This document shows, piece after piece, positions 1 through 31,940 of a DNA stretch of 64,000 bases. The notes under the pieces were generated by a model. It had not been told where the DNA came from and searched no databases. It was given only the letters and a program-made list of their open reading frames with translations. The position numbers and the translations under genes are program-made. Source of the stretch: Marsupella aquatica (lineage: Eukaryota > Plantae > Marchantiophyta); the NCBI GenBank assembly GCA_973895155.1, contig OZ316893.1:12354359-12418358 (forward strand). The letters are read 5' to 3'. How positions within the stretch are numbered: position 1 is the first letter of the stretch; every line of letters starts with the position of its first letter.

Positions 1-99
1 CCCTTTTAAAAATATGGGCCTCATGAGGGCTTGTTTGGGGTTGTGGTAACTGCACATCAAATAGCAGCAGTCAACTATGTAGAAAGAACAACACTTGGA

Positions 100-567
100 G
101 AGCATCTCCAACCCAAATGAGTTTTGTTGCCATAAGTTGACCAAACCCAATAAAGAAAATGCAAAAAACAAGGTCCAACCCACTCACTAGAATACTATCA
201 GGTTTTCAGGAACAGGGATTTTGGGGTTATTTGATCTCTATATGGAAGAGATTATACACTAGTTAATGTTTACTCGGTTTGTTGCAGTGTTTTCAAAATT
301 TCAATATATGGCTGTCAAATGTTGATACCTGTTGTTTAGGGAAATCACCCCATCAGGGTTGGAGCTGCTTTTTAGTTAAATCACCATTGTCCACCAAGTT
401 TGGGGAGGAGAAAATGGAGCACTTCTTTACTGTTTTGAGCACAGATTTTGTGGGGGACAGTGGCACTTTAAGCATGATAGATATGTACAATGAACTAAAA
501 AAGGGTGTTGTCAGACTCGGTATTTAATATATCTAGTAAGCAAAACCCGGATTGCTTGGAGATGCCC
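100..567. mobile_element. Tourist/PIF-Harbinger-like MITE (degenerate)
   Basis: Inverted termini GAGCATCTCCAA (100-111) and TTGGAGATGCCC (556-567). TTA follows the right end but the left TSD is not preserved. Same TIR family as the clean copy at 43195-43553. Confidence 0.5.
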
Positions 568-859
568 TTAGTGATATAAAAGAATAGTCAGGTTTATTGT
601 GGTGTGAAAAATGCGGACAACCTTTGGACACTTGCCATGCTTTTGCTTTTTGATGTGCAATTGCACCCAGGAGTTGTTTCCCTCTTTCCAGGGCCCATGA
701 GCATAGCATAATGACGCTCAGTGCACAGGGTTACTAGGTTGTAATCCTGTGACCAAAATGTGAAGAAAAAAAAGCTGAGGGGAGGTAGCCAGAAAACTTT
801 TCTAAGAATTCTGGGAGCAGCTCTTTTAACCCCAACCCAGACAGTAAGTATGGTATGTA

Positions 860-1278
860 AATTCAGTGGACTAGAGCCCAGCCAAGAATGTCATTATAGT
901 AAGTAATGAACCCAGACTGTCACTATCTTGCTTCTAAAATGCCAATTACAAGCTAGAGTTGGGGTCTAAGCTTCTAGAGTGAAGCTTCTAGCCTGTAACT
1001 CCATGGCTTATCATGTGGATGTGAAAAACTCATGACATGATGTCTGTCAAATGATAGCATGTATGTATGCTTTTCGTTATGATTTCTATTTACATTAAAA
1101 AATGATTACATGCATGATAATTTTTTCTATCAATTTCATTAACATTCATAAAATGTGAATAAATAATATATTTTGGTTCCATTTTTATTTTACTGTTTCA
1201 AAAACAAGTAATAGGAGCTAGTAGTATGGAAATTCAGTGGACTAGAACACAGCCCAGAATGTCATTATAGTAAGTAAT
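860..1278 (+). repeat. Dispersed ~50-bp direct repeat, 2 copies (~860-907 and ~1230-1278)
   Basis: AAATTCAGTGGACTAGA...AGAATGTCATTATAGTAAGTAAT occurs twice with few mismatches. Confidence 0.8.
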
Positions 1279-1634
1279 TTTCAGTACGGAAAAACATTAA
1301 CTATCATGAGGTTCCATAAATGATGTAAATAAGAGGGACCTCCAAAAATGGTTACACTCCCGGATAAACCTTACCTTGTTGCTTACGGAATTTTATTCTT
1401 TGCTTGGACTTCCTCAACCACTTCGAAGACCCTCAGAGAAGACGTCAGCAGTGAGCACACAACTGTTGTAAGCGAACCTTCCCTGGCTCTGGAAACCCAG
1501 CTCGAAGGCCCCCACGACCTCATCTGTAAGTGGGGTCCTTCCCAATCAGATACCCAATTCATCACTGCACACTGCTCACATGTGAAGCAGTCAAGGAGGA
1601 CCCATAGTCCCTGAATTGTGCATTCACCGGGTTC

Positions 1635-1640
1635 TATATA
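1635..1640 (+). promoter_or_regulatory. Putative TATA box of the Dabb gene
   Basis: TATATA about 170 bp upstream of the ATG at 1806; positional inference only. Confidence 0.4.
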
Positions 1641-1756
1641 CAAAGGAGGGGAAGGACATAATTGTTGTGGGGAATTGGCAGCTCAGACGCATCAGAGCGA
1701 AGAAGAGAGCAAAGCTAGATTGCAAATTCACTCCAGCGAAGTACAGAGTCCCCACG

Positions 1757-1760
<4 letters not shown>

Positions 1761-1806
<46 letters not shown>
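1761..1806 (+). repeat. (GA)n microsatellite abutting the start codon
   Basis: Perfect GA run of about 23 units whose last A is the A of the ATG at 1806. Confidence 0.95.
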
Positions 1807-1810
<4 letters not shown>

Positions 1811-3535
1811 GAGTAGTGGTCCGGTTCGCCATACAGTGGTACTCAAGCTGATCAACAAGGAAGATACAAAGAAAGTCGCTGACAGCCTGAAGGCAATGGC
1901 GAACGGACTTCCTGGCGTGAAGTGGACGAGCTTCAACGTCGTCACCGATCTCGGTCTGCTTACCGTCCCGGGCTCTCCGTCTCTCTGTGTCGTTGTGGGA
2001 TTTGTTTATGCGCCAGTTCATGATCAATTGTATAAAGTCCCTGTTGCTTGGCGTTGTTTGCTACCCCATTGTTTGCTACATGGTTAGCTTAATCTGGTTG
2101 TTGTCTTTGTCGGGCTCGTCAACTTTCTGTCTCTTCGCGGGTTTTGCTTATGGTGCGCTTCATACCAATTAAATAAGTCCCTGTCCATTTGCAGTTGTTG
2201 CTACCTCATCTGTTGCTCAATAGTTAGCTTGGTCTGATTGATGCCTTTCTCGTCGAGGCTGCTTCTTACTTTCATGTTCTGAAAGGCAGAAGCCACTGCA
2301 CTTTGCATTCTCAGTGTGCTTTTGGTTCAGAGGAGGTGATCGAGAATCGCTGCAGTGGGTTGCTTGTAAGGAGCACTTCCTAGTTTGTCTGATCGTTGTC
2401 CGTGCTATGTAATTGATACAAATGGTCCATCTCTAGTTGATGAGGTCGCTTAGGACTTTGGATTGACACAAGCTAGTGTTTATTTTTTTCTCTTTGCTCT
2501 CTCTTTGGACCATTTCGTTGTTGACTCCGGTGCTGACACCATTGCCAGAAATCCAGTTTGGAGTAAATACTTTCTTTACAACATTTCTTTGTTGACTCCA
2601 GTGCTGACACCATTGCCGCAAAACCAGCTTAGAGTTGAATGACTCTCTCGTCGAAGTAGTAATTTGTTTGAAACTGCCGGTACTAGTTGAATAATTTAAC
2701 AAATGAATAAATTTAATGTGAACGTCACAATATGAAGCCAAAACCAGCATCCTACCATAGAGGACAGAGTCAGCATTTCATTGCTTTTACATTTTGCGAT
2801 TGTTTGCCAACTTACAACAAGAAGAAGAATTTCTACGGGGGGAAAGAAAGAAAAATCAACATTGAGGTGCAATTCCTCGATGGTCATCCTCTCAGAAAGC
2901 CTGGTAGTCTGGTAGTGTCGTTGGTTAGAAATTCTGTGGGACTTTCTTCGAATTACAAGCATTACTTATCTCTTGTCCAATAGATAGGCCTTTAACTCTG
3001 AGGTCAATTTTTGGTCCTCTTGCTCTGGCCACTGAGGACACAGTTTCGTTATCATTTGAATCCGATGGTTGATGTCTGATGCCCTCTTGGTTAGGAAGGG
3101 TGGGCAATCAACGCCTGCCCGCTTAGAACAGACCGTAAAATTTTCTTCACAATACTACCGTGGACTTATCAATATCTTCCAGTCGAAAATTATATAGACT
3201 AGTTGGATACATGATCTCAATGAAGTATTAGAAGTCCCTTACATCTGTTGATTACTGCTCATGGACGGTTATGCGTCACATAACCCAAATTATGGAATTC
3301 AGAATAACCCAAATTATGGAATTCAGAAGCGATGGTTGTGTATAACTCGTAGTGATTGCATGAGGCAGGATTGGTTGAGACGAATGCGGATGTGTCTGTG
3401 ATTGCCGACTTTCCAGACAAGGAGAACTTTGTGGCATACGCTCAGCACCCAACGCACTTGGGCATAGTTAACAGCATCAAACCTCAAGTAGCTAATCGCC
3501 TTGCCATTCAGTATGATCCTCCGCAAAAATTGTAA
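1806..3535 (+). CDS. Stress-responsive alpha/beta barrel (Dabb, HS1/SP1-like) protein, isoform A: exons 1806-1953 + 3369-3535, 104 aa
   Basis: Exon 1 reads MASSGPVRHTVVLKL...VVTDL(G), with a GT donor at 1954. Exon 2a follows CAG and reads GLVETNADVSVIADFPDKENFVAYAQHPTHLGIVNSIKPQVANRLAIQYDPPQKL*. The H-x-V-x-L-K and Y-x-x-HP-x-H Dabb motifs are present. Phases join in frame (148+167 nt). Confidence 0.85.
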
Positions 3536-4719
3536 TTCACTCTTTGTACCGGCCCCAAAATATAGCAATTTTGTGGGTTCACTTCGGATGAAGTGTAACT
3601 CTCTACGAGAAGATGGTTTGCAGTTCGTGAAAAAGAAAGATATGTCCTGAACGGTTTTGATTGAGGAAACAGGAGGCACTTATGTACGGTTCGGTATCAT
3701 TCGTTGTACCAGATCTAGATATTAAGATTTTGACGTTATGTGTTGTCCCAGCCCCAAATAGTGAATTTTTGACGATAACTCTAGAGCTCAATATGCTCCA
3801 TGGCGGGCTGTTCTGAGTAAGATATGTGATACGTTATTTTTGGGGGAGTAAATGGTGATTATCTACAGCTGGATTCAACGTGTCCCATTTCTTCCTTTCT
3901 TTCTGTTTCTTAATGATGAGCTAAGGACTTCAAGAAGAGTATGAGATAATCGGGTCTGAGTTGTCAGTGTCTCCTATGTTCCCTTGATCCGCAGCTCTTT
4001 CCCGTTTTCCGTGGGGCTCATTCAATGGGTGCGCTTTAGTCTCAGTACTTCATATGTAGGCCTTGTTTTCTGAAATGAATCTTATTAGAACACAATCAGA
4101 TATCGGCTTGTCTCACTCCTTTCCAAAATATGAAGCCAAATTCATTAAAGAAAAGGACAACGGGCGTATGAACGCAATGTCAGTTGCAGTGCGTTTTTCC
4201 AAATTATTGCTAGAGCAAGAGCAAGGGGTCCGCCTATCTGAGGTCACTCTCGGCGATTCAAATAGTCTGGCTAGGTCAATTTAGGAAATTTTTGGGGTAT
4301 TCTAGTTCATACTCTACTAAAACAAATGGGGCTTTCAATTCTCAGAAGTTTCTTCCACGCTTCGCTCCATCAACCCAGGACACAGTTTCTGGCCAAAAAT
4401 CCTGTCCTCGGGGCTACCACAGGTTGTCCGAAGTCTGATATCACCTTTTGGACTTCTTGGCTATGAAGGTGGAGGGATTAATGCCTGGTAGCTAAGGACG
4501 ATGTTAAATCTTGCTTCATAATCTCTTTGTGGACTTCCCCTTGAAGTAAAACTGGTGAATTGACTATCGATATCCTTCAGGAGGGAAGTAGACACAAACA
4601 TCTCGAAGTAGATCTACTAGTGCTCGTGGATGCAGAAGCCTGAAAACCAACTTTTCATTGAATTCTTGTTTCAGAGTCAGTTGTTCTTGTATCTAACTCG
4701 AAGTCCCTACTTATGGCAG

Positions 4720-4886
4720 GATTGGTTGAGACGAATGCGGATGTGTCTTTGATCATCGACTTCCCCGACAAGGAGAATTATTTAGCATACTCTACGCATC
4801 CACAGCATCTGAACATAATCAAAAGCAATATACCTTTTGTGGCTAATCGCCTTGGTATCCAGTTGGATGCCTCAGCAAAATTGTAA
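4720..4886 (+). CDS. Duplicated alternative terminal exon (2b) of the Dabb gene; isoform B = 1806-1953 + 4720-4886
   Basis: Same length (167 nt), same phase, CAG acceptor and TAA stop as exon 2a. Reads GLVETNADVSLIIDFPDKENYLAYSTHPQHLNIIKSNIPFVANRLGIQLDASAKL*. No second exon 1 was seen between the two copies. Confidence 0.75.
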
Positions 4887-5924
4887 TTTGTTCGTTGTAC
4901 CAGCCCCAAATATAATAATAAGATTGAGGATAAGTCCTTTCAAAATACTCAAACAATTGATGATTTGACCTTCACAACTGAGACCCATGTGATTGTGGTG
5001 TGCTGTTTTGATGAGGAAAACTGGATGATTGTGTCAGATTGAGTTTAGAGGACCGGAAATATGTCCTCATACACAGTGTAACTGGTAATTTTCATGGCGG
5101 TATTTATGGCTAGACGTTTCAGTATGCCGAGTGAGTTTTGTACTGTCTGGCTATCTATCTGGTGCGCAGCAACGATTGACATGTCCTTTGGGGACCTATG
5201 GCAATAAAACCTGAGTTTGCTGTTTCACGTAAGGATTTTCTGGTCAAATAATTTAGATTTTCAGCCATCTCTCTTTGTGAATCTCTGCTGCTGCACCTGA
5301 TTGGATGCTGTGATCACTTTTATGACTTGATTGGTCCTGAAGAAGGCTGTCAACCAAACAGTCTGGGAGATGGGGTTAAGATAGGGGTTTGTGATGTTGG
5401 ATATTACCGTCTCCCTCCACTCGACTTGGTAGCTACTTACTTCTATTCGTGCTCCTGTCCCGTTCTGAATACGTGCTCTCATCCTTTGATGCTTACCGTG
5501 TGGCATGGAGGCTGGGAGTGCTCTCAGCAGGATTGTCTGTGGATTCTGAATTGGCCGTGGGGTAATCAAATTAGAAATGCGTGGGCGATGCATTTGTCAG
5601 ATGTCATAATGTTTTCTTGATGAAGAACAGGTATGGACGACGATCCGAAGTAACGATACCTCTGTAATTATTATACTCATTGCAAAGTTACAATGTTTTG
5701 AATAGGAGACAAAAGCCTTTAACAAAACAGATTTTGGGGTGACTGCCTTCCGCTTGAGTGAACTTTCCATCAACTTCTGTCAATATTGGAAACTTTCTAA
5801 CACATTGCGGTTTCTGTAGTGCAGTCAACTTTCTCTGTCCTGAGTAATTCTTCTGCTGAAACAACAAATTTGAGTGCTTCGTCCCTGAATTCTTCCTCTC
5901 CCTTTCGGTAATGAACAAAGTGAC

Positions 5925-6166
5925 TGTTAGAATCTATCACTGTTGTACTAAGGAAGACGCACCGGAGGCCAGGTTAAGTAGAGCCTGGAGCTACCGGAAA
6001 AAGGGGAGGATCAACAGACCAGCAGACTAACCTAAGATCAACAGCTAATCTGTCTGCCGTGAGTTGCGCATAAGCGACAAGAAGAACAACGGCACAAAGA
6101 GACTTAGGAGCCGCAGCAGCCAGCGGCTAATACGTAATACAGCTTACGAGTAATACTGTTCTAACA
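5925..6166 (-). repeat. 3' LTR of Copia-1
   Basis: TGTTAGAA...TTCTAACA, preceded on the minus strand by the polypurine tract GAGAGGGGG. Confidence 0.95.
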
Positions 6167-6209
6167 CCCCCTCTCGAGTAAGTGAGGGAGAATCAGAGCG
6201 CAGGATAGG

Positions 6210-6698
6210 ATGCAAAAAATGGAGGAAGGAACGATGACGTTCCGTCGGGCACTAATATTAGGCACAAGCCTAAGTGTTGAGGCGATTGGGCATATCTTCC
6301 GATTGCTTTATGTCGGTTGCAGCAGGTTGGCACAATGGATCCGTGCTCGAGAGAGAGAGATTCAGGAGATCAGGCCGGAAGAAAAGGAAGATGAAGCCAA
6401 GGATGAGCCGTATGAGTTGTTGCAGATGGCGACGAGTGTGGAGGCCGCAGTGGTAGGGGCCGATACCCCCTCTGGTTCTGTAGTTGAATCCAGGGACGTG
6501 AGACGTCTCGTGCAGGAATCTTTGATGCCGTTCGGTCATAGACGTCACTTCTATGCAATTGCAATAGGACATAGACCGGGGATATATACTTCATGGGCCG
6601 ATGCGAACCAGGAAGTATGTGGTTACCCCGGAAATTGTCATCAGGCCTTTCGGACATTTCGAGAGGCCGAGTACTTTCTCAGCCGCTACAGTCGATGA
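6210..6698 (+). CDS. Antisense ORF inside Copia-1: 162-aa protein with a C-terminal RNase H1 N-terminal hybrid-binding (Cauli_VI) domain
   Basis: FYAIAIGHRPGIYTSWADANQEVCGYPGNCHQAFRTFREAEYFL (nt ~6549-6680) fits the FYAVxxGxxxGIYxxWxxxxxQVxGYxGxxxKxFxxxxEAxxFL pattern. It fills the gap between the 3' LTR/PPT and the pol stop. Confidence 0.85.
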   Translation: MQKMEEGTMTFRRALILGTSLSVEAIGHIFRLLYVGCSRLAQWIRAREREIQEIRPEEKEDEAKDEPYELLQMATSVEAAVVGADTPSGSVVESRDVRRLVQESLMPFGHRRHFYAIAIGHRPGIYTSWADANQEVCGYPGNCHQAFRTFREAEYFLSRYSR

Positions 6699-6720
6699 TG
6701 TAGATAGGAACGTAGCGGAA

Positions 6721-9700
6721 TTAGGACTGCTTATGTATATCTGAAATGGACTTGACTCCGATGAACGCTCTATGTTTTTCAAACTTCAGCCGTGAGAGCG
6801 GTTTTGTCAAGAGGTCAGCAGGGTTTTCTGCTGTGTTGATGTAAGACAAAGTCACTTCCCCCTCCAGCACCCTTTCGCGCACAAAGTGGTGCTTGCCTTC
6901 GATGTGTTTGGTTCGGGCATGGAAAACAGGATTCTTGGCTAACTTAATAGAACCCTGATTATCACAATGTAAATGAATATCTAAAGCTGAGGGAACGGAG
7001 GCATGAGCAAGATTGTTATGAATGGTAGTGCTGGAAATGCCGAGCGGTACCTTCAAGGTGGAGTTGATATTTAGCTCAAGGAGAAGTCGGCGAACATGGA
7101 CAGCCTCTTTTGTCCCTTCTGATAGAGCTTTGTATTCAGCTTCAGTGGTACTGTCGGAAACGGTGGACTGCAGTTTGCTCGACCAGGAGATAGGGCCGGT
7201 TGCAAGTTGAAGTAGGTAGGCGCCACGAGACCGGCGTGTGTCGGGGCAGCCAAGGAAATCAGCATCAGTGAAGCCTCGGAGAAGTAATTTAGGGGAGCGT
7301 TGAAATTCGATACCAAAGTCACTCGTCCCTTTTAAGTAACGTAAGATGTGTTTGACGGATTCCCAGTGCCTTTGTTGGGGAGAGGACATGTAACGACTAA
7401 CGATGCCAACAGCATAGGCAATATCAGGTCGTGTGTGGGTGAGAAAGATGAGTTTACCCACCGCATGACAGTAGTCAGTGATATCCACTGAAGGGGTACT
7501 GGTCTCACTGGTAAGGACGTGACCTTCGGGAAGCGGAATGTGCTCACATTTCGAATCTTGCATGCCGAATTCTTCAACTAATTTCTGACAGTAACCGGTC
7601 TGATGAAGAATCAAGCTCGTGGGAGTCCGAAGAAATTCAATACCAAGGTATTTTTGAGCCAGGCCTAAATCCTTCATATCGTAGCGTTGATGGAGATCGG
7701 ACTTGATGGTGGCAATTAGTGCAGAATCACTGCCAGTGACAAGCAAGTCATCAACGTAGAGCATGATGATGGCAAGATGACCATTTGTGTGACAGAAATA
7801 TAAGTTGGGGTCAGCCAGGCTTCGAGTCCAACCGGTGGCCCGAAGGTAAGAGTCAATCTCTTCGTACCAGGCCCGGGGGGACTGTTTTAATCCATAAAGT
7901 GATCTTCTGAGGCGACAGACCATAGATTCCTTGCCTAGGACTTGAAAGCCTTGCGGTTGTTGCATAAAAATTTCCTCAGTAAGGGTGCCGTTCAGAAAGG
8001 CTGTAATGACATCCATGTGATGGAGTTCCCAGCCATTGGAGACAGCAAGAGCAATGATGGTGCGGAGAGTGGACCATTTTACAACAGGTGCAAATGTCTC
8101 ATTGTAATCAATGCCAAATTTCTGCTCAAATCCCCGAGCAACCAATCGAGCCTTGAGACGAAATCTGGTAGAGTCAGGTTTAACTCGATAGACCCATTTA
8201 GTAGTAAGAGCCCGACGCCCAGCGGGGAGATGCACAAGTTCCCAAGTCCCCAATTTCATGAGAGAGTCTATTTCTTCTTGCATAGCTTGCTTCCAACCCG
8301 GATGGTTAAGAGCCTGTGCGGTGGAGAGGTATTCAAATTCAGAGTTGGAGGATTCTACTAGTAATGCGCTCATGCAATAATCAGAATGCCAAGGAGGGGG
8401 ATGATGAGCTCTGAGGGAGTGTCGAGTGGCGGCAGGGCGAACAGGCCGGAGAGCTGGTTGCGGTTCGGGAGCTGCATCCATGGGTGGTTCTAGATCAACG
8501 ACTGGGATGGGATCCTGGGCTATGAGAAGATTTTGGTCAGCTATCATGGGAATAATATCTGGGGCTATAAAAGGAGCTGCTACGGGAATAATGGGGTCGG
8601 CCGCTACAGGGAGTAGGTCTGGTGCAGCTAAAGGGTTAATATGGTCCCCCTCTAGAACGTGCGGCCCTGGGAGAGGAACTAGTGCGGGTAGAGTAGGGGT
8701 GTAAGTGAGGTCGTCGGAGAGAAGAGAGCTAAAGAAGTTAGTAGCAGTGGATAGGTCAGGTTGTGATGTACCCATTTTGCTCTCATCAAAGGTAACGTCT
8801 TTGGAGATGATAATGCGACGTCGAGAAGAATCAAAGCATCGATAGGCCTTGGACTCTTCATCATAGCCAAGAAGAGACGTTTGAAGGGCTTTAACACCTA
8901 GCTTGGACTGCATGGTGTCAGGAAGAAGAACATATGCGGTGCAGCCGATAACACGAAGATGACTGAGGTCGGGTTTGGTACCATGAAGAGCTTCATACGG
9001 AGTGGAGTGGTGGAGTGCTTTGGTACCAGAGCGATTTTGAACGTAGTTGGCGGTGCGGATTGACTCAGTCCACAAGGTTGTAGAGAGTCCAGAACTGATC
9101 AGGATGCTTCGGGCACCTTCAAGGAGTGTTCAATTTTTTCGCTCTGCAACCCCGTTTTGATGAGGAGCTGATGCAACCGTGAGCTGTCGTCGAATGCCGT
9201 GTGATCTGCAAAAGCCAAGAAATTCTTGGGACATGTATTCACCACCCCGGTCAGATCGGACACATCCAATGGATCCGTGGAATTGCTTTTCGACCATGAG
9301 CTTGAATTCCTTAAATTTGTCAAACGTTTCACTCTTCCGATAGAGAAAATAAACCCAAGTATATCGAGAATAATCATCTATAAAGGTGAGAATGTACTTG
9401 TGGGAGTTGGAAGCCCGAATAGGTCCACACAGATCTGAGTGAAGGAGTTCCAGAGGTCGAGAAGAGCGAGAGTGAGAAAGCTTAGGAATTTTCTCCCGAT
9501 GATGCTTTGCAAGGACACATGTATGGCAGTTGCGTTTCGCTCGGGGAAGCAATGGTAGCCCAGTGACTAGAGAGCTCTGAGACATATGATGGACCATTTG
9601 ATAGTTGATGTGGCTAAGACGCCGGTGCCAGAGTTCCAGTGGATCTGGGGGGGAGACTTCAGCAACCAAGGTCGTGATTTTTCGAGTACATGAGAGGGAT

Positions 9701-11082
9701 GTGACCGGAGGATGCCAAGGAAGGCGTTGTCTAAGCTTGTAGAGCTTGTTCCTATGATCTCGAAAACCCTGAAGGAAGACCTTGCGTGGATTATCTTTGT
9801 CGAAAACAAAGCAGGATTTAGAATTGAAGAGGACAAGGTGACCAGCATCAGCAAAAGATCCAACGGAAAGAAGATTGCGTCGAAGACCCGGGACGTACAA
9901 AACTTCAGTCACCTCTTTATTCTGATCGACAACAATGTTGCCCTGGCCAGTAATAGCAAGCTTGCTGCCGCTGGCAGTAGTTACAGATTCTGAGTGGGTA
10001 CCAGGTGTGATGCTGCCAAACATGGCATTATCACCACTGACGTGAGCACTTGCTCCTGAGTCCAAGATCCACTCACTAGAGCTACGCTTAGTATCAATCT
10101 CAGTAAAGTTGACCTCAAGTGGGTCCGGTTCAGTGGGGTCATATTGATCGTCATCTTCAGCCTCAGCCTCATGTGGAATCTCAACCATATGTGCTTGCGG
10201 TTTGAAGCGACGAATACCTGCAGCTTTGATCTGCAAGTCAGAAATCTGGTCATCAAGTTTCTTAAGATCACAATGTGCTTCCCAGTGTCCCGTCTTGCTG
10301 CAGTAGTTGCAGTTTCCGGGCCTAGGTCCACGACCTGCAGCCAGATTCGGACGCGGATTGCGGAAAGGCATGTTGCCTCGAGGCTGGTAGCGGCCAGGCT
10401 GAAAACGTCCCCTTCCTCGCCCGAAGTGGCGTGTGACTGCCATGGCCTCTTCAGTAGTTTCGATTTGCTGCTTACCTTTCCTCCAGTACTCCTCCGACTG
10501 TAGGCGTTCAACCAGATTGTTGTAGGTTGGCTTGGGACTGCGAGTGAGATCAGCTCCAAATATACAGACAAAAGGATTCCACGAGATTGGAAGTCCCTTA
10601 AGTACGATGTGCATCAAGCGAGTGTCGTCTACCGCAGCATTGATGCTTGCTAGGTGACCAGCAAGTTCGTTGACGGTATTGATGTAGCTTTCAACAGACT
10701 GACTGTTGCTCATGGTCATGGTCTGAAGCTTTTGTTCGAGCAGAAGTTGTCGCTGCAGCAAGTCGCCTCCAAAACGTTGCTGGAAGTGCTCCCAGCACTT
10801 TGCTGGGTCATCCGAGAACTTATCGACGGTGGGCAGGAACTTAGCCTTGACTGTGGAGGCCAAGATGGAAGTTGCCCGGACCTTCTTCTTCTTCTTCTCC
10901 AGGGCAGTCAGAGTCAGACCGCCATCGATAAAGTTGCCGTTTGCGTCAGGTTTGACGCCAAAGTTCAGCTCCTCAATGAGCTCATCCCGTCGCAGTAGAT
11001 TCTTGACAACAATCGTCCAGGTCATGTGGTTAGTAGAGCCATCTAGTTTGTCAGACTCAGAGAATATTCTAAGTAGATCCAT
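6721..11082 (-). pseudogene. Copia-1 gag-pol polyprotein with one in-frame nonsense codon (TGA, 9130-9132) in integrase
   Basis: Motifs: zinc knuckle CNYCSKTGHWEAHC, protease WILDSGAS, LWHRRLSH, integrase SDLCGP/SDRGGEY/QNGVAERKN*TLLE, RT LYVDDLL, RNase H TDADF/EAEY/CDNQ. The two listed ORFs (9130-11082 and 6721-9075) are in the same frame. Confidence 0.93.
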
Positions 11083-11105
11083 AATGGCTACAGTGAATGC
11101 GGGAT

Positions 11106-11377
11106 CAAGGACTTCTCACTTGATCTGTGGGGCACACGAACAATGTGGTACCAGCGGTAAAAATGACAAAAAAATGTGAATCAATCAGTAAAAGCAAAGT
11201 CTACTGACACAGTGTAGATGATCGAGGACTTCTCACTTGATCTGAACTTACACGGATGTCTACAGTGATAAAAAAACAAAATGTGAATCAATCAGTAAAA
11301 GCAAAGTCTACTGACACAGTGTAGATGATCGAGGACTTCTCACTCGATCTGAACCTACACGGATGTCTACAGTGATA
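11106..11377. repeat. ~110-bp tandem repeat (about 2.5 copies) in the 5' leader of Copia-1
   Basis: AGGACTTCTCACT(T/C)GATCTG occurs three times; AATGTGAATCAATCAGTAAAAGCAAAGTCTACTGACACAGTGTAGATGATCG occurs twice. Confidence 0.85.
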
Positions 11378-11515
11378 GCCAGGAATAAACTGCTGCTGAG
11401 GTAAACGTCAAGCAGGGACACTTTCTACCTGAATGACATGCTACCTCCAAGTGTCTAAAGAACTCTAAAGAATTCTAGATGCAGCTAATCTTACAGAGCC
11501 TGCGCTCTGATACCA

Positions 11516-11757
11516 TGTTAGAATCTATCATTGTTGTACTAAGGAAGACGCACCGGAGGCCAGGTTAAGTAGAGCCTGGAGCTACCGGAAAAAGGGGAGG
11601 ATCAACGGACCAGCAGACTAACCTAAGATCAACAGCTAATCTGTCTGCCGTGAGTTGCGCATAAGCGACAAGAAGAACAACGGCACAAAGAGACTTAGGA
11701 GCCGCAGCAGCCAGCGGCTAATACGTAATACAGCTTACGAGTAATACTGTTCTAACA
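11516..11757 (-). repeat. 5' LTR of Copia-1
   Basis: Near-identical to 5925-6166 and followed on the minus strand by the PBS. Confidence 0.95.
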
Positions 11758-12628
11758 GTGACAACGTGGATGTGACACCAATTTATTTCTCTTTCGATGC
11801 AAGCGAGATTTGCAATAGGGCAAACACAGAACGAGTTGAAGAGAAGAAAGCCTAAAAGTCGAAAGGCATAGTTGTGTCCTTGAATGAAACTTCCTAAACA
11901 CTGGATGGCATAGTTGCGTCCTTCAATGAAACTTGCCCTCTTGCCCTGTCAAATTTACAGAACCCACTTGTCCTGAAATGTGTATAATATTTTTAGGAAG
12001 GGACTATTCAGGTCTATATAGAGAAAATCTCAGACTTTTTGTGGGAAATTATAGACATGAGAAATAACACTACCAAATTTCAACTCCCTGAATATAAAGG
12101 GCTTTGCAACCATGACAATAAGATAGATAGGAATGGAGACAGGGGCACATGTTCAAATACACATTATAGCCAGCACTTGGTTTAGAGATTTAATTAACTC
12201 ACATTAAGCCCCTTACATAGTAGAAATGGGTTCGTATTCATTGTAAATTTGCAGATAATTGTATATAATTATTTTATAATCTATTTGGAATGATGTAATC
12301 TTATTCACACATTATCAATGGTCCTTGAATGGAGATGAAATATTTTTATAAGTATGATCCCTATCCTACAATTCTTTGTGAATTATTAAATAATATAAAT
12401 ATGTATTATTGATTAATATAATACTAATATGATTTGGCCTATAAAGTGTACATTTAGGGACACAAAAATGTACATTTGGGCATCTTGAAGTGTACATTTG
12501 GGACCATGAAAGTGTACATTTCAAGACTGATTTGTGAACAAAAGAAAATACACTTTTAATGAAAACTCTTAATTAGCCTCTTTGGAGGTAACCCTTCTAT
12601 GCCCTGGATTACGAGGCTTTCGACATCA

Positions 12629-18094: not shown

Positions 18095-19750
18095 CTACTT
18101 GTGATGCAATTGCAAAACCTGCAATACGTCACGGTGTCTAGAGAAACTCTCCAAAGGAATCACTTTGGTAAATGCGTCAGCCGGGTTGAGTTTACCATCA
18201 ATCTTGACTACCTCAAACAAATTATCAAACACACCCTGCCTGATAAAATGGTACCTGACGTCAATGTGCTTCACTCTGCTGTCCATCACCTGGTTCACAG
18301 CAAGGTGGAGCGCACTTTGACTATAACAATGGAGCTTCACATTCCCCTGTGGCAATCTCATTTCAATTATAAGTCTATCCAACCAAATCGCTTCCTTTGC
18401 TGCTTCCGCAGCTGCAACATACTCCGCTTCTATAGTAGACTGAGCAATACACTTCTGCAAAGTAGATCTCCAACTTATGCATCCACCGCCAAGTGTGAAC
18501 ACGTATCCTGTTGTTGATCTCCTTCGGTCCAAATCTTGTCCATAGTCAGAATCTACATAGCCAATCAATGATCTAGCATTCTTTGCATTCGCATCAAATA
18601 AAAGACCATGATCCACGGTACCCTTCAAGTACCTGATAATCCACTTCACTGCTTCCCAATGTACCTTCCCTGGATTTGACATGTACCTACTCACCTTGCC
18701 CATAGCCATGGCAAGATCAGGTCTAGTGCAAGTCATCAAATACATGAGACTTCCCACTACCTTATCATAAGGAACCTTTGACATCAGCCCCTTCTCAGTC
18801 GCATCTGTGGGGCAGAAAGCTGATGATAATTTGAAGTGTGCAGCCAAAGGAGTACTTACTGGCTTGCTATCCCCCATGTTGAACCTAGCAATTACCTTTC
18901 TTGCATAACTGCTCTGTGTCAACCATAGCTTACTAGCCTCTAAGTCCCTAGTGATCTCCATACCCAAAATCCTCTTAGCTGGCCCTAGGTCTTTCATCTT
19001 AAACTCTACACTGAGCAGTGCCTTAAGCTTAACAATCTCAGACCTATCCTTGGCCGCAATAAGCATGTCATCCACATAAAGTACTAAAACAATGAACCCA
19101 AAGACAACATTCTTCACCGGTTTCAAATACACACAAGGGTCAAATACACTTCTGTGAAAACCCTGTGACCGAATCCAATCGTCAAACCGCTTGTTCCATT
19201 GTCTTGGTGACTGCTTCAACCCATACAAGGATTTCAGCAATCTGCAAACCAATTCCTCCTGTCCTCTCTTCACAAAACCTAACGGTTGTCTCATGAAAAT
19301 CACCTCTTCCAATGTGCCATAGAGGAAAGCTGTGACAACATCCATCTGATCTAGCAGCAGACCAAACATTACAACAAGTACACACAATAGTCGTATTGTA
19401 GAGTACTTAGCAACTGGTGAGAAGACCTCATTGTAATCCACACCTTTCTCTTGTGTGAATCCCTTTGCTACCAACCTAGCCTTGTAGACCTTTGATCCAC
19501 CTCCTGTGGAATTATCCTTCAACTTGTAAATCCACTTGCTGTCCACCACTTGCTGACCCTTAGGCAGCTTAACAAGCTCCCAAGTTTTGTTGTCCTTTAG
19601 TGACTGCATCTCCGTTTGCATTGCTGCAGCCCACTTCTGCTTCTCCTTTGAAGCACTGGCCTCATGAAATGAAGAAGGTTCCCCTTCTTCCGAAATTAAT
19701 GCATCATCCTCATCATCAGCTGCAAAATCATCCTCTTGCAGTTGAGATAA
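18095..19750 (-). pseudogene. Copia-2 pol, RT and RNase H portion (3' of the CACTA insertion)
   Basis: Motifs YKARLVAKGF, LYGLKQSPRQW, LYVDDML, YVDSDY and EAEY. The RNase H CD motif is altered to CYSQS. Confidence 0.93.
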
Positions 19751-22700
19751 CACTAGTAGAAACCGGGGTAATTTAGACCATACCTTATAGGACTAAGCCC
19801 ACTAAGTCCTTCTTCCATACTTTAAATGACTTGCACCCATTGCCAAGGTTTTGTTAAAGACTATAAAAGACTTTGAGTGTTTTCCGGTTTAGTTAAAGAC
19901 TATGAAAAGTAACCTTGCTACTTTGTGAAGGGTGAACACTCTAGGACATCATGGGTTTTGTTCTTGGAATCACTCTAAAGGTCCACACAAAGACTAGTTT
20001 AATACAAAGTCTTACAAGGGTTCATGATAAGAGTATACTTAAGAAGGACCGGGCGACATGCTACTTTTGGGTCTAAGTGCTTAAGGACATGCCTTCTATA
20101 TATCACCAACCTTAACTAACATTGCATCGTAAATATCCATGTAACGGGTACTTTTCATAACTTAGGGTACAATTGTACTAGAGGGCTTAGGGTGGTTTCT
20201 AACCGGAATCGGAACTAATGCATCACTATAACCCTAGCTAGGTACAACTCCCACACCATGATATATTCCGCATTGCCAACTAGTGTTGTTTTGACAGGGT
20301 CATGGGCACTAATTGACACAATGAACAGTCCACAACTTGATTGATTTGAGTGTAAATGATGGTGCCTTTTGATCCAAGATTAATTCCACAAGGGGGGGGG
20401 GGAGGGTTAGGGGGGCCCACAACTAATTAAGTGGCCATGACTTTGTCACCAAAGGGATTTATTTAAAGTTATCCTTAACCCTCTTTAGTTTTGTGTGTTG
20501 CCTAACACTCTGGCGCAAACGTACTTATTATGCTCAACGGGTCACCTCAACGGAAACGAGCTTACATGACTGCTTGCACTAAGTATTGGGTTAGGGTGAG
20601 TGTGCTTTGGTCATCAGGTGATTATTGGGTTTTTGTGAAGGGAACTATCGAGTACTTGCGCCCATGTGTTCGGGCCCCATTGTGCGACAGAACATTGTGC
20701 TTTGCTTCTATGAGTGGAGCATACGAGTAGGGTTTAGGGTTAACATTTTGCGAGGGAAGCTGGGAGGCGATTGTAGTCAATTGTTGCCATCCACTCCTGC
20801 GAGCGCTTTTGACAGTTCTACCTGCATGCCCCTTACAATTGTTTGGACAAAGGAGTTCAGCAAGTGGTTTGCGCTGGTTTGGGACCTTGACAGTCGTGAG
20901 GTGGTAAGGACATTGAGGCATCCCTGAGAAGCGCTTGATGGTAAGGACATTGAGGTGTTGGAGACATTGAGGCGTTGCGGACATTGCCTTAGAGGCTCTT
21001 GAGGCCAGTGACAGCTTTTGGCGCGAAGGCAAGCGGAGATTTGTCTCTTGCCTGAGAGCTGACAGCTTCGGATTGAGACAACGTGGGCGCACCAAGATTC
21101 AGAGAAGACTGACTGGCTGGGACCGACCGGTCTTGGGAAGTTGCAGCCGTGGAGGGACCGGGAGCGCTAAGGTACATTGCAGCTACGAGCAGCAATGCAC
21201 CTGCCATAGTGACATTGAACTGCCCTGAATCACCCTGGTTAGTCCAAACTTCCATTTGCAAGTTAGTTTTGGTAGTGGCTTTGGTTTTCTAGGCGGAATG
21301 AGCTCCGATGCCATGCATTAAGAATGTGGGAAATGCTATTTTGTAGCTTGCTACCTCATAGTGCTAATTTCAACTTCAGGTTTGCGTGGTTTTGGGCGAT
21401 AAGCTTGTGGCTCATTCGGACTGAGTGACCTTCCTGCGGGCCCTGCCCTAAGTGTTCACACTTCTCGCCGTCCCAAACTGCGAAAGGCTTCTCCCCGTTC
21501 TGTATCCCTGCTTCAGTAATTGTATTGAGGTCTTTCAATCAGTCTCATAGGGGAGGTCATTGTCTTCTCTGTAAGTTGTTGCTCCTATCGCACTACCAAG
21601 CTTGTTGAAGGGAGCTACTATCGCGAGCTGCTACCATTGCGAGCTACTACCATCGCAAGTTGTTGAGGAGAGGGCCAGTTGTTTGCGAAAGGATTTCCAG
21701 ATTGTGTCGGAGGTCCAGATTTCTTGCCTGTGGGTCCCCATGTTTGCAGTTTTTTCCTGGCTTCTTGCGCAGTGCTCCGACGTAGTACCCATGATGCTAG
21801 TCTGAACGGATTCATGAGCTGTGACTGATTTGCTGTTCAAATGATGTCTTCAACTAGAGCTACAATTAGTGTCTGCGGAGCTGCCAACCAGGTGCAGGTG
21901 TGATTGAGGTCAGTTCAACTGTTGGGTTGCCCGAATGTTCCGTTGCCATCATTTGTAACCACGAGCAATGGACTTTAGAGGCGGGATTTTCTAGGGATTT
22001 CTGCTCAACCCTTTGCTGGCTTTCTACTTTGAGGTCTATTTTGGGGTTCGGGCAAAGGGCGGAGGGCGAAGATCAAGCATTGCAGTTTTGCTAACGCTGC
22101 ATGGTGGAAATTGGACCAGCCAACTCCTTGTCTACGGTGTTGTGGAGCTGGGCGAGCTGCGACAAGGGACCAAGCCAGGCGACCTGTAAATCAAAGCCCA
22201 TTGACCGCTGCTGAAGGTTTGATGTTCTATATTTGAAGCTCTCGTTTGCTTTCTATTTGTCAGTCTTTCACAGCTGCGCATTAGTGTTGGCCCTATCCTC
22301 CGTCCCTCTACTGGCCTGCTACTGACATTTGGTTAATCATAGTTGTTCACTGCTGTGCATTAGTGTTGGCCCTATCCTTCGTCCCTCTGCTAGCCTGCTA
22401 CATTTGGTTAATCAAAATGCAATGTCTGTCTGAGTGAGCTGATCATCTCCAATGTAGTATGGGCTTGGGATTTACATATATGTTTCCTGCTTCCAGCAGA
22501 TAGGCAATTGCTTCCAAGCTCTTTGGTGCAGACGTCTCTATGGAATGCAATGCCCTATATGCCAGAGCTTTCATATATTGGCATGTTCACATTTGCTCTT
22601 GGAATATATGATCCCGAAAGCTTCATGAGCAGTTTATGTTCAGAATTCTGTTTATGTTATTGTTTCCGTCAATTGCAGCTTGGATTTTTGAATATATGTC

Positions 22701-24402: not shown

Positions 24403-25071
24403 AAGACCACTTGTCACACCGCATGCACAGACCAGAGACCATTGACCTATAACTTAACACTTTGACTTGAACAGAGAGGATATTTACTTAAGATTTTGAA
24501 TTATGAGCAATTTTGGGTCCAGGGTTTACGGTCAACAGTACATAACTTATCCTATTATGGCTGCACTAAGTACAATATCCTAATTTAAGAGGCTAGCAAG
24601 CTCACTTAAAAGTCTCCTTTCAAAGACTGGAATTAATGGGCCATGTGATAACCTGGAAAAAGTGATTTATGCCTAACTTATTTGTCTCATTCACTATCAT
24701 AGCCTATTTAGGATGTATAAATTACAACCCTGATCACACTGCTTGATACCAATCCTGTTCAAAAAATGTATGTTTTACATGTCACGACTGTTATATGTGA
24801 TTCAAATGCATTAAATCTTGTTGCAGATCTCCTTTGGTGAATCATAGCCACAAAATTGAGGTGTAGGTGGAGCTATTGTACGAGGGGATCAGTTTTTAGT
24901 GTGGGCTCAATAAACCAAAAAGTATGTCTACTCTGCACATGTGTGTGAACATTTCATTGCAGTAGCAATTGCCACTCTAGTCTATATGCTACATTGTACT
25001 TTTTGTACACTGCACTAAATTGTATTGTCTGTGCACTCTACTAAATTGTACTATCTGTCTCAGGCATAGGC

Positions 25072-25752
25072 ATGGCACGCCCTAAAATCCGAGCCAAGAA
25101 GCGGGGGACAGAGGTGAGCAACACAGGTGTAGTTGGGCCAGATGGTAGTAACTTCTCCGCAAGTCAGATTTTCCAGAAGGCAGCTCATTGTTGTGCCATT
25201 TGTGACGATGGTGGTGGCTTAGCCATATGTGAGGGCCCTTGCATGAGGCATTTCCACCTCAACCCGGAGTCTGACCTTGCTGCAGAAAACAACTGTCCAG
25301 GGGTGGGCCTCCCGTCAGCACACCAGGGAGGCTGGATGTGCACTGCTTGTTTGGAGAAGCAGGCTAAGTGTGCACAGTGTGGGAAGTTGGGGTCTTATGA
25401 GGGCTCTGTTGATGCTCCACCACTTGTTAGGAAATGCCCTGACAGATATTGTGTGAGGTTCTTTTGTTTTTCATGTTTGCCCGATCTTGCCACAGCTTGC
25501 CCACTTCATAAGTGCAAGGCATGTGGTCAGCACGATGAAGATTTCTGGGTGGACATAGTCCACTGTGTTAGGTGTCCCACCATGTGGCACTTTCATTGTT
25601 TGAAGGAGCGTCAAGCAGAAGGCTATGCTTGTGACAGACACATCTATCATCACTCTGCACATGGTGTTGATCGATGGATCTTCTATTGTCATCGCCATGC
25701 CATAGATCCTACTTTGCACACTCCCATGAGAGATCACATTTCTTGGCTTTGA
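25072..25752 (+). CDS. EDM2-like PHD-finger cassette protein (226 aa), CACTA cargo
   Basis: CAICDDGG..CEGPCMRHFH..C..CTAC..CAQCGKLGS..CPDRYCVRFF..CPLHKCKAC..CVRCPTMWHFHCL..IFYCHRHAIDPTLHTPMRDHISW parallels the recalled EDM2 PHD region (CAICDNGG..CEGSCLRSFH..CPLHKC..CRRCPKSYHRKCL..IYCQEHEIDEELLTPVRDHVKF). Basic N-terminal NLS-like RPKIRAKKR. Intronless and open. Confidence 0.85.
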   Translation: MARPKIRAKKRGTEVSNTGVVGPDGSNFSASQIFQKAAHCCAICDDGGGLAICEGPCMRHFHLNPESDLAAENNCPGVGLPSAHQGGWMCTACLEKQAKCAQCGKLGSYEGSVDAPPLVRKCPDRYCVRFFCFSCLPDLATACPLHKCKACGQHDEDFWVDIVHCVRCPTMWHFHCLKERQAEGYACDRHIYHHSAHGVDRWIFYCHRHAIDPTLHTPMRDHISWL

Positions 25753-26350
25753 ACCTGAATAATGTACATGCATAGTGCACCTGATGTGGATACCTTGGAG
25801 ATTGCAGACATTCCAATTTTGAGAAGAAGGACCTCTGTAGGAGAGGATGCTTAGGCAACAAGTACCCTAAGTTCATTACTTGTTCCTGGGTACATGCCTT
25901 CAAAAACTCCCCTTAAGCCTTCTAGGAACTTTTTTAACTCTGCAATCATTTTGATCACGACTTACATGACACTGCTTAAATTAAATCAGGACTTCTCATT
26001 ATGAGCATATAAGTTACAAGGCTATTTAATTTGCGAGAATTCCCTTAAAGTGTACCAACATTTTCTATTCTCATTGAATGTCTGCCCATTTACAACATCT
26101 GTATGTGGCATCACAAAACAATTGCACTTGTCACCTTCAATATTGTCAAGGCACATATTCAAACTATGAGGTGCATGCTTGCAGGTGTCTAGTACGTTTG
26201 TCCCAATATTTCTCCCGTTTGGAATCGGAGCAGAGACTCACCAGACGACTGGACTGGACCAAGTTATAAACGCAGCATTTTAAGGGCCCTCCGATTATCA
26301 GGTGAACGCATTATCTTCCGGTCTACAGTGATTAGGTGGCCCGTGTGTAC

Positions 26351-27142
26351 ATGGCCTCTAGGAAACGTACAAAGGTTGACCACCCGCCTCTGTTGGCTGG
26401 AATCAAAGCCATTTTGATTCCTGGCCACTATGGGTTCACCCAAGTGAGTTGGCCAATCGTACAAAAACGATTCTCAGAGTTCCATGGGACTGAAGTCAAG
26501 GACATCACTCCACAGACTACACATGTTGTTGCGGGGACATGGCTGGATGTGATGAACAACTGGTCATGGTCCTTCATTGATTCTGCCATTACCAACCAAG
26601 GTCTAAAAGTAGTTGAAGTCTCTTGGCTGACCGATTCTGTTAAACATAGGTGTGTACAGAGTACTGAGCAATATGAGTTGTGGGAGAGTGAGGAGGCCAC
26701 TGCAGAGGCTTTGGCTGAAAAGGAAGCCTATGAAGCAGCGGCAGAGAAACCCAACTTTGCTTCTGTCCAATATGGACCTGTTGTCAACATAGGACACCAT
26801 CCTATGCGTGCAGATGCTATATTGAATGAGCATGGCAAGGAGAGAAATACCATTATGAAGGGGTTCAGTGTGGTATTTGCAGAAGAAGGAATTGGGGAGA
26901 CTAAGTGCAGATTGTACAAGTCTATAGTTGTTGAGCTAGGTGGGACAGTGGAGGAGAGTCTAACAGAAACCTCCACTCATGTTGTAGGTCTGTCATACAT
27001 GAAAATATGCAGAAATTTCTTTAAGACAACAGTGCGTGATTTTGTCATGAACAACAATCTTTGGGTGCTTTCCCCTGATTGGCTTCTGGAATCAACAGCT
27101 AGAGGGAAGCGACAGAATGCTTGGGACTTTGATATTTTTTAG
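26351..27142 (+). CDS. Tandem BRCT-domain protein (263 aa), DNA polymerase lambda-type BRCT-like, CACTA cargo
   Basis: Two repeats with BRCT hallmarks: LLAGIKAIL..HGTEVKDITPQTTHVVA..KVVEVSWLTDSVKH..EQYEL and MKGFSVVF..LGGTVEESLTETSTHVVG..VLSPDWLLESTARGKRQNAWDF. N-terminal RKRTK NLS-like motif. First ATG is at 26351. Confidence 0.85.
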   Translation: MASRKRTKVDHPPLLAGIKAILIPGHYGFTQVSWPIVQKRFSEFHGTEVKDITPQTTHVVAGTWLDVMNNWSWSFIDSAITNQGLKVVEVSWLTDSVKHRCVQSTEQYELWESEEATAEALAEKEAYEAAAEKPNFASVQYGPVVNIGHHPMRADAILNEHGKERNTIMKGFSVVFAEEGIGETKCRLYKSIVVELGGTVEESLTETSTHVVGLSYMKICRNFFKTTVRDFVMNNNLWVLSPDWLLESTARGKRQNAWDFDIF

Positions 27143-27913: not shown

Positions 27914-28240
27914 TAAGATGAGGACATCTCACACCGGTCTCGCACCTGGCACCTGTGTCTATGACTATACATGATTGGACTCTGATATGGTCATGGATGT
28001 ACGTGCAGAGGCAGTACATGTGAGGACAGCGGAGGAGTTGACACCCTCAAACATTTAGGAATTTTGTCTCATTCACTTGAGAATAGGTACATGACTCAGG
28101 CACCTATATTTTTTGTTTTTTTTGTTTTTTTGGAACGTTACGTATTTTGGCAAGTACAGTCAGGGGTGAAATCCTTAACAGGAAGTGTATTTTTCACTTG
28201 CATAATAAAATGACAGGGTGCTGAGTGCGTGTGTATAGTG

Positions 28241-31200: not shown

Positions 31201-31940
31201 CTGCACACTCTGGGCAGCAGGATCCCTTCCCACAGTTCGAGCAGTGGATTCGGGTGACAATTCGAGAGCATAGTAGACATCACCCAGATATGGAGAAGGA
31301 TTTGTATCTTCTATCTGTGCCACCACGATTGTCTATTCTGACCTACAAACGGATGAGAGCTTATGGAAATCATTATCGAGTGAGGGATGAGCAGGGTGAC
31401 CATTGTGTATCATATGATTGTGGTTTGATTTCTGTGTTTGAGCAGAGAACCTCTGAAGAACAGAGGGGGTGGATGAAGATGGGTTACGTGGGGGAGTTGA
31501 CCGACATTTGGGTGTTGAATTATGGTAACACAAGTGTCCCAGTGATATTGATGAAGGGATCATGGATGAAATCAGAGTGGCAGAGACCAAGGGTCACCAT
31601 GAAGCGTGATCATGATGGGTTCTTGTTGGCCAATTTTAGGTCCAGAGTACCAGAATGGTCTGAGCCTTTTGTTTTCCCTAGCCAAGTTGAACAGGCTTTC
31701 TTTGCAGATGTGGAGGAGTCACATGGCTGGAGGGTGGTATGCCATAGCCAAGCACGGAACAGGCGGATGGATGGAAGTAAAGTAGAGTTCAGTTTGGATG
31801 ACCATGCTGCATTCGAGCATCCTAGTCATGAGACTGTACTTCCAACTCGGGCAGGGACTGACTACATCCCCTTAACATTGAGAGAGACATATGATGAACC
31901 TGGGCAAATGGAATATGATGAGGTTGATGATTTGCAATAG
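28241..31940 (+). CDS. CACTA TnpD/Tnp2-type transposase; exons 28241-30031, 30167-31068, 31181-31940; ~1150 aa, apparently intact
   Basis: Motifs CPCTQC (transposase-associated), IDACPDGCVLF, RHFPLIPRLQRLF, LSLDGVNPF, NYNLPPW, DYPG, DVMHIEKN, KTHDYH, FPPAFFDVMTHL and RWMYPMERY, with a DUF4216-like C-terminus (EPFVFPSQVEQAFF). GT-AG introns keep the frame. Confidence 0.93.

Follow-up and report, generated by a model that had tools for sequence, protein, structure and literature searches.

For decades, plant LTR retrotransposons have been known to carry additional genes in antisense. To our knowledge, no function has been assigned to these genes, mainly because their products resembled nothing informative. 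Antisense ORFs of the 3' region are described in the Gypsy elements Grande, RIRE2 and Retand, and the available text of these reports gives their function as unknown (PMC7264820, PMC11963269). These Gypsy ORFs, i.e. TRP28/PF04195 of Retand, the plant mobile domain ORF of Ogre, gene23 of maize Grande and the ORF of RIRE2, are antisense, lie between pol and the 3' LTR, are conserved across families and are proposed to play an accessory role (PMC7264820, PMC11963269, PMC6317226). The ORF described here, from Marsupella aquatica (Marchantiophyta), resembles them in orientation, position and proposed accessory role, and probably also in its conservation across families. It differs from them in its Copia host, in the size of its spacer (554 bp against 3-6.5 kb in Gypsy) and in a product containing a domain of known structure and ligand.

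According to the initial annotation of this locus, antisense ORFs are known mainly from Gypsy lineages. This agrees with the REXdb survey, where those of the 3' region were found in 1% of SIRE elements and in none of most Copia lineages (Bianca and Ikeros left out) (PMC6317226). This survey counted only ORFs of at least 250 codons, and its available text does not list PF01693 among the extra-ORF domains found in at least 5 elements (PMC6317226). Copia antisense ORFs could thus have been missed, since the present one, with about 154 codons, falls under the cut-off. The env-like 3' ORFs of SIRE (Sirevirus) are also located between a Copia pol and the 3' LTR. They are, however, sense in 74% of cases and antisense in 1%, belong to long elements and have no conserved domain reported in the text available (PMC6317226).

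Three kinds of proteins share the domain itself. The N-terminal domain of RNase H1 (3BSU, 1QHK) shares with it the profile match, the predicted fold and the equivalents of Y29, W43 and F61. In contrast to RNase H1, the present domain is not joined to a catalytic RNase H, stands C-terminal behind a family-specific helix and has HQA in place of FKK, with R32 and R33 lost. The dsR domain (mini-TAV) of the caulimovirus P6/TAV protein likewise belongs to a separate gene placed right after RT-RNase H in a reverse-transcribing plant element, with its own promoter in CaMV, and its likeness to 3BSU was confirmed (PMC7102451). P6 is nevertheless a sense-oriented protein of about 520 aa that forms the viroplasm and drives reinitiation, against 154-162 aa for the present protein, and the Pfam and ESM Atlas searches revealed no likeness to it outside the 44-aa domain. 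The term 'P6-type' chosen initially is therefore correct as the label of the Pfam family and denotes no relationship, the likeness being confined to the domain and the best named matches being of RNase H1 type. Finally, the capE cargo of Pleurotus Helitrons is a separate transposon-borne gene with PF01693, as here, but in a fungal rolling-circle DNA transposon and treated as a captured gene (PMC4289320).

No description of a PF01693 domain in a Copia spacer was found in the literature covered, which included the available text of 10.1101/572842 and PMC5603734 (most subscription papers and Repbase lie outside this scope). The position and orientation are known from the Gypsy antisense ORFs, whereas the Copia host and the domain are new as far as searched. 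Antisense accessory genes are thereby extended to Copia. Because the structure of the domain is solved and its ligands are known, the function of the accessory protein becomes a direct question of binding and packaging.

The window, meaning the whole stretch of 64,000 nucleotides that was analysed, contains a Ty1/Copia LTR retrotransposon on the minus strand at 5925-11757. Its features and those of the antisense ORF are the following:

5920..5924, no strand: left target-site duplication GTGAC (same 5-mer at 11758-11762)
5925..6166, minus strand: 3' LTR, 242 bp, TG...CA, paired with 11516-11757
6167..6175, minus strand: short polypurine tract adjoining the 3' LTR
6210..6698, plus strand: additional ORF of 162 aa in antisense; its conserved coding portion of 154 aa begins at Met9 (6234)
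6234..6350, plus strand: conserved N-terminal amphipathic/hydrophobic helix, aa 9-47 (predicted from the model and the relatives)
6351..6536, plus strand: acidic, variable linker, predicted to be disordered, aa 48-109 (from pLDDT and the relatives)
6549..6677, plus strand: RNase H1 N-terminal hybrid-binding domain PF01693 (profile and fold match)
6721..11082, minus strand: gag-pol in a single frame (Gag, zinc knuckle, protease, integrase, RT, RNase H)
11168..11377, minus strand: tandem duplication of about 105 bp in the 5' UTR, 97% alike
11504..11515, minus strand: primer-binding site TGGTATCAGAGC
11516..11757, minus strand: 5' LTR, 240/242 identical to the 3' LTR
11758..11762, no strand: right target-site duplication GTGAC

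All the structural marks of Ty1/Copia are present, i.e. the TG...CA LTR pair, the 5-bp target-site duplication, the primer-binding site and the polypurine tract. The Pfam matches in gag-pol follow the order Retrotran_gag_2, Pol_BBD, gag_pre-integrs, rve and RVT_2, which is the Copia order Gag-PR-INT-RT-RH. The primer-binding site TGGTATCAGAGC is one that we take to be of the full tRNA-Met type, and this disfavours an assignment to Bryco or Osser. These Copia lineages use half-tRNA primer sites (REXdb survey, PMC6317226). The LTR sequence has no TATA box on either strand. As initially proposed, the element is young: its LTRs differ at two of 242 sites, both by transitions, and the GTGAC duplication is perfect. 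The divergence (K = 0.0083) corresponds to an insertion age of about 0.3-1.7 million years under three assumed substitution rates, which are general background values. The gag-pol of the present copy is not intact. Its 1453 codons are otherwise open and all catalytic motifs are present, but one in-frame stop interrupts it at codon 651 (9130-9132), in the integrase core just past the GVAERKN motif. On account of this stop, the copy is probably non-autonomous. The RNase H of the element has kept all four catalytic acids.

Several minor features of the element were recorded. Its RNase H (6900-7150, minus strand) has an insertion of about 25 aa between the catalytic Glu and the second Asp, the spacing being 58 here and 33 in another Copia of the window; the antisense protein might dock on this insertion, or the two might be unrelated. 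Besides the 97% pair, the 5' UTR repeats (11103-11377) include a third partial copy at 86%. The CpG observed/expected ratio is 0.98 in the spacer (6167-6720), 0.70 in gag-pol and 0.55 in the host DNA at 1-5900, as if the antisense gene had escaped methylation decay or Arg codons had been selected. Contigs of the runs labelled organism B match the stretch 6137-7500 without any difference, and a run labelled organism A shows a single changed letter. A shared insertion in close species, a difference of labels or a recent transfer could account for this near-identity.

The intact 162-aa frame annotated opposite to gag-pol is present at 6210-6698 on the plus strand. Both annotated distances hold: 44 bp separate its start, which is within the internal region and outside the LTR, from the inner boundary of the 3' LTR, and it ends 22 bp from the pol stop (6721-6723), so that it fills the 554-bp spacer. 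It is antisense and lies between pol and the 3' LTR, which is the position of an aORF-3R. An ATG-initiated ORF of at least 162 codons appeared in 11 of 5000 Markov shuffles of the spacer. No ATG occurs on the plus strand upstream of the ORF (5925-6209), which is not significant (P=0.10). The frame does open at Met1 (6210), as annotated, but the conserved start is Met9 (6234). Two related proteins, P0001 and P0004, begin at its equivalent, a third, P0026, has a Met there preceded by a 10-aa extension, and a sister copy in public run X3 has Met9 and lacks the Met1 ATG. Given the starts of P0001 and P0004, the likely product has 154 aa. No ORF comparable to this one was found in the spacer beside a second Copia pol of the window, and no second PF01693-like stretch elsewhere in the window.

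An AlphaFold2 model of the ORF, built on an 8-row alignment (mean pLDDT 66, pTM 0.34), predicts a single long helix at aa 3-54, followed by a linker at aa 55-109 with a pLDDT below 50. The net charge of the linker is -8. The N-terminal helix has a hydrophobic moment of 0.6 and a peak Kyte-Doolittle value of 1.42. No Pfam family matches it, PF01693 being the sole domain of the ORF. With its predicted amphipathic character and a peak hydropathy of 1.2-2.2, it may or may not be a signal peptide or a transmembrane segment. A spliced or micro-protein model was also considered, with a donor-like GTAAGT at about 6178 and an acceptor-like TGCAG at about 6515, or with a start at Met106. It was rejected as the main reading because the relatives hold helix and domain in one frame and P0004 has no Met106.

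The Pfam scan suggested at the outset matched PF01693 to aa 114-156 with 54 bits (cut-off 21, E=1.9e-14). The best named sequence matches in the PDB are the N-terminal domains of yeast and human RNase H1. Foldseek superimposed the predicted C-terminal domain on the human domain-hybrid complex 3BSU (E=2.7e-4, rmsd 0.7 A, 45 residues). In this alignment Y115, W129 and F147 correspond to the human Y29, W43 and F61 and are kept, Y115 and W129 being invariant in 8/8 aligned rows. Q145 and A146 occupy the positions of the human KK pair (K59, K60), as had been noticed; the losses extend further, to R32, R33, R57 and F58, replaced by A, I, C and H. The human FKK is replaced in the whole family by HQA, HQG or HRA, so its replacement does not reflect decay of this copy. 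Among 244 motif-matched repeats from 165 fetched proteins (family rows included), KK is present in 66 and K comes first in 168. An Arg cluster lies just ahead of the first strand of the domain, and the domain region has a net charge of +3 to +6 in 7/7 family proteins. Neither the ORF nor any of the 6 relatives scanned contains a catalytic RNase H domain, PF01693 being the only one present.

In human RNase H1, F58, K59 and K60 read the DNA strand and W43 contacts the DNA sugar. Roles for Y29, R32, R33 and R35 of the human enzyme were reportedly described by Nowotny in 2008. The W43A substitution abolishes hybrid binding and either K59A or K60A alone reduces the affinity about 10-fold (PMC6846478). 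Since FKK is replaced and the equivalents of R32, R33 and R57 are lost, hybrid binding by the present domain may be weak. Judged from the kept and lost residues, predicted binding is plausible, though probably weaker or re-tuned.

Relatives of the protein were searched with several methods. A word-index search with the full ORF yielded no homologue among 469 candidates, whereas a search with the domain only yielded P0001 (1/1 candidate). The HMMER library search returned 1161 proteins at E<=0.001. Among the best 150 of these, nearly all were domain-only matches, and P0001, P0004 and P0026 also matched the N-terminal part. Their identities to the window protein are 20/39, 19/39 and 19/39 in the helix, 15/62, 13/62 and 8/62 in the linker and 36/49, 35/49 and 23/49 in the domain region, respectively. 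Linker identities range over 5-15/62 across six relatives. The two full-length relatives, P0001 and P0004, are 45-48% identical overall (helix about 50%, linker 21-24%, domain 71-73%), while the domain pattern of P0026 is lost half-way. Conservation of helix and domain on either side of a diverged linker is what selection acting on the protein would be expected to produce. When P0026 was held out, a profile of the helix alone retrieved it at E=1.4e-16, with no other match below E=3. P0048, P0091 and P0120 have the same layout and an HQAF-type motif but only 5-7/39 helix identities, and their possible membership of the family rests on a weakly supported tree. The family proteins were taken as sequences from Logan or JGI contigs, which are 0.9-1.8 kb long.

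In a 50-column tree of 70 of the 394 domain hits, 8/9 family rows group together (92/74), near fungal domain-only proteins. No starred branch contains the window row and, for this reason, no donor of the domain is claimed. In the ESM Atlas, the clusters closest to the whole protein are PF01693 clusters of basidiomycetes (0.92, with a recognition of 2297, slightly under the reliable line), and aa 9-109 gave no usable match there. Metagenome scans retained 0/375 stretches and, in a second scan, 1/146, while viral contigs gave 0/8 and 0/11. The single metagenome candidate (L001) was dropped, as its domain lies at the start of the ORF, the family helix is missing and its 1064 bp show no retroelement context. 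Its ORF (193-771, plus strand) encodes an N-terminal PF01693-like domain 50% identical to that of the window, then TVRS repeats and a Cys-rich tail. Other architectures were seen among PF01693 proteins: P0003 has eight tandem domains, and P0093 and P0122 have two such domains fused to PIF1 or UvrD helicases.

The region was compared with contigs from four public runs (X1-X4), none of which is recorded as RNA. At 80% identity, the pieces listed from diverged contigs fall in the LTR end, in the domain region and in RNase H, and none of them in the helix and linker region. Six joints from 3/4 runs tie listed domain-region pieces to LTR-end or pol pieces; four entries have sides of 33-83 letters and the rest, with 21-27 letters, are weaker. 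In an X2 contig of 975 letters (depth 304), an 83-nt piece ending at 6676 is followed by pol pieces 78% and 83% alike. The conservation of the domain DNA is thus close to that of pol, and its place and orientation are unchanged. As read from these contigs, diverged Copia families about 78-83% alike in pol carry domain-like DNA beside RNase H. Three joints in the pieces listed link the LTR end to pol without a domain piece at >=80%, so some relatives may lack the antisense gene. Of the five differences listed in the domain region, three are synonymous (Q145 included) and two yield V117 and Q151, as in P0001.

The closer copies bear on the expectation that the ORF would be unbroken in sister copies, which holds for one of the two distinct copies. 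The X4 variant, in the comparison at 85%, remains open, its listed differences including 4 substitutions, no stop and no gap. The sister of about 89% identity in X3 (85% comparison) has lost a net 8 nt at 6494-6505, in the stretch connecting helix and domain. This deletion, also found in X2, splits the helix from the domain by a frameshift. Among its listed differences, 7/15 substitutions are synonymous in the helix (4.7 expected, P=0.16), 3/14 in the linker and 10/29 over codons 9-94 (P=0.34). By its sequence, this sister is a broken copy and adds nothing for selection. At the level of the family, the evidence favours a functional gene, and these comparisons support the view that the antisense ORF is no chance frame but a conserved gene associated with the element.

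The best reading, which we hold tentatively, is that of an accessory factor that would act in trans and bind the RNA:DNA hybrids formed during reverse transcription. The 3' LTR would fire an antisense transcript across the spacer, and translation from Met9 would give a protein of about 154 aa with an amphipathic helix, a flexible linker and the hybrid-binding domain. The helix may dock the protein on itself, on Gag/Pol or on a membrane. Through docking, the domain would come to lie in the virus-like particle or close to it, which could offset the weaker affinity of a single site. The tethered domain would then grip the RNA:DNA hybrid, presumed here to be its ligand rather than dsRNA, during reverse transcription. 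In this manner the antisense protein would provide, from a separate chain, the hold on the substrate that is missing from Copia RNase H; in cellular RNase H1, this domain plays the corresponding part in cis. Most Copia elements manage to replicate with no hybrid-binding domain of this sort, and the antisense gene is accordingly not generally essential. A more specific version is possible but doubtful: RNase H1 would be split in two, with the catalytic part in Pol and the antisense hybrid binder packed into the particle as a processivity clamp acting in trans. If this version were true, no antisense accessory gene of a plant retrotransposon would have had a definite biochemical role before this one, and the ORF would echo caulimovirus P6 by convergence. 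More generally, a domain serving reverse transcription in trans would represent a new way for retroelements to make use of pieces of the cellular RNase H1.

The protein could instead bind dsRNA and shield the sense/antisense duplexes of the element from Dicer as an anti-silencing factor, which seems unlikely. Any antisense transcript would be fully complementary to the genomic RNA, and the residues replaced in the domain (F58, K59, K60) are readers of the DNA strand; W43, the contact to the DNA sugar, is kept, however, and silencing would be fed by the very production of antisense RNA. In vitro, hybrids and dsRNA are both bound by this 40-aa motif (PMC5902531, citing Cerritelli 1998), but the matching domain of CaMV P6 is reported not to be needed for suppressing RNAi (PMC5902531), an activity that maps to aa 80-110 of P6 (PMC5670102). 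The analogy with P6 as a silencing suppressor is weak for this reason. Of the accessory-factor reading of the initial annotation, the domain is thus real and the gene conserved, and the silencing-suppressor idea taken from CaMV P6 is weakened.

It is less probable that the domain has turned into a protein-interaction module, as in P6, through which the ORF would regulate translation or host signalling for the element. The dsR domain of P6 binds TOR, eL18 and eL13 (PMC5902531), and five basic or aromatic contact positions are lost here in a domain that still keeps 71-73% identity, above what the fold needs. W129 and Y115 are invariant, on the other hand, and the Arg cluster precedes the domain; a one-frame gag-pol has no need for reinitiation, and the similarity to P6 stops at the domain borders.

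Improbable to a somewhat greater degree is a protein restraining its own element as a copy-number control, a catalytically empty binder that would block RNase H/RT or recruit host factors to R-loops. A dominant-negative binder would show the same anatomy, the window's family looks low-copy (contig depth in X1 of 59.4 for the LTR and 29.2 for the interior) and antisense expression was proposed to be regulatory in plant elements (PMC7264820). The domain-bearing relative in X2 nonetheless reaches about 10 times the single-contig depth (304 against about 31), depth being a poor measure of copy number.

The least probable reading, in which the ORF is a passenger captured from a host gene or from another mobile element and plays no part in retrotransposition, would fit the frameshifted sister, substitutions that look neutral and the capture of PF01693 as cargo by fungal Helitrons (PMC4289320), but it agrees poorly with ends conserved around a diverged linker in proteins 45% identical overall, an exact fit of the frame to the spacer, domain DNA whose conservation in diverged families is close to that of pol, and an antisense orientation, transduced genes being usually sense (PMC7264820).

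The rest of the window contains other genes and elements. At 1806-4890 (plus strand), with the Copia element about 1 kb downstream, lie one or more host genes with exons of the Dabb stress-responsive A/B barrel, two copies of which, 75% alike, are located at 3336-3559 and 4687-4910. ORFs with NSD-like PHD fingers and a BRCT domain are found at 25045-27139 (plus strand). They adjoin a CACTA-type transposase at 28214-31937 (Transposase_21, DUF4218, DUF4216) and are possibly transposon cargo. Judged from the Dabb exon and these CACTA-type domains, the host DNA looks plant-like. Degenerate Copia pieces are present on the minus strand at 18098-19792 (RT-RNase H) and 36616-38409 (Gag and integrase).
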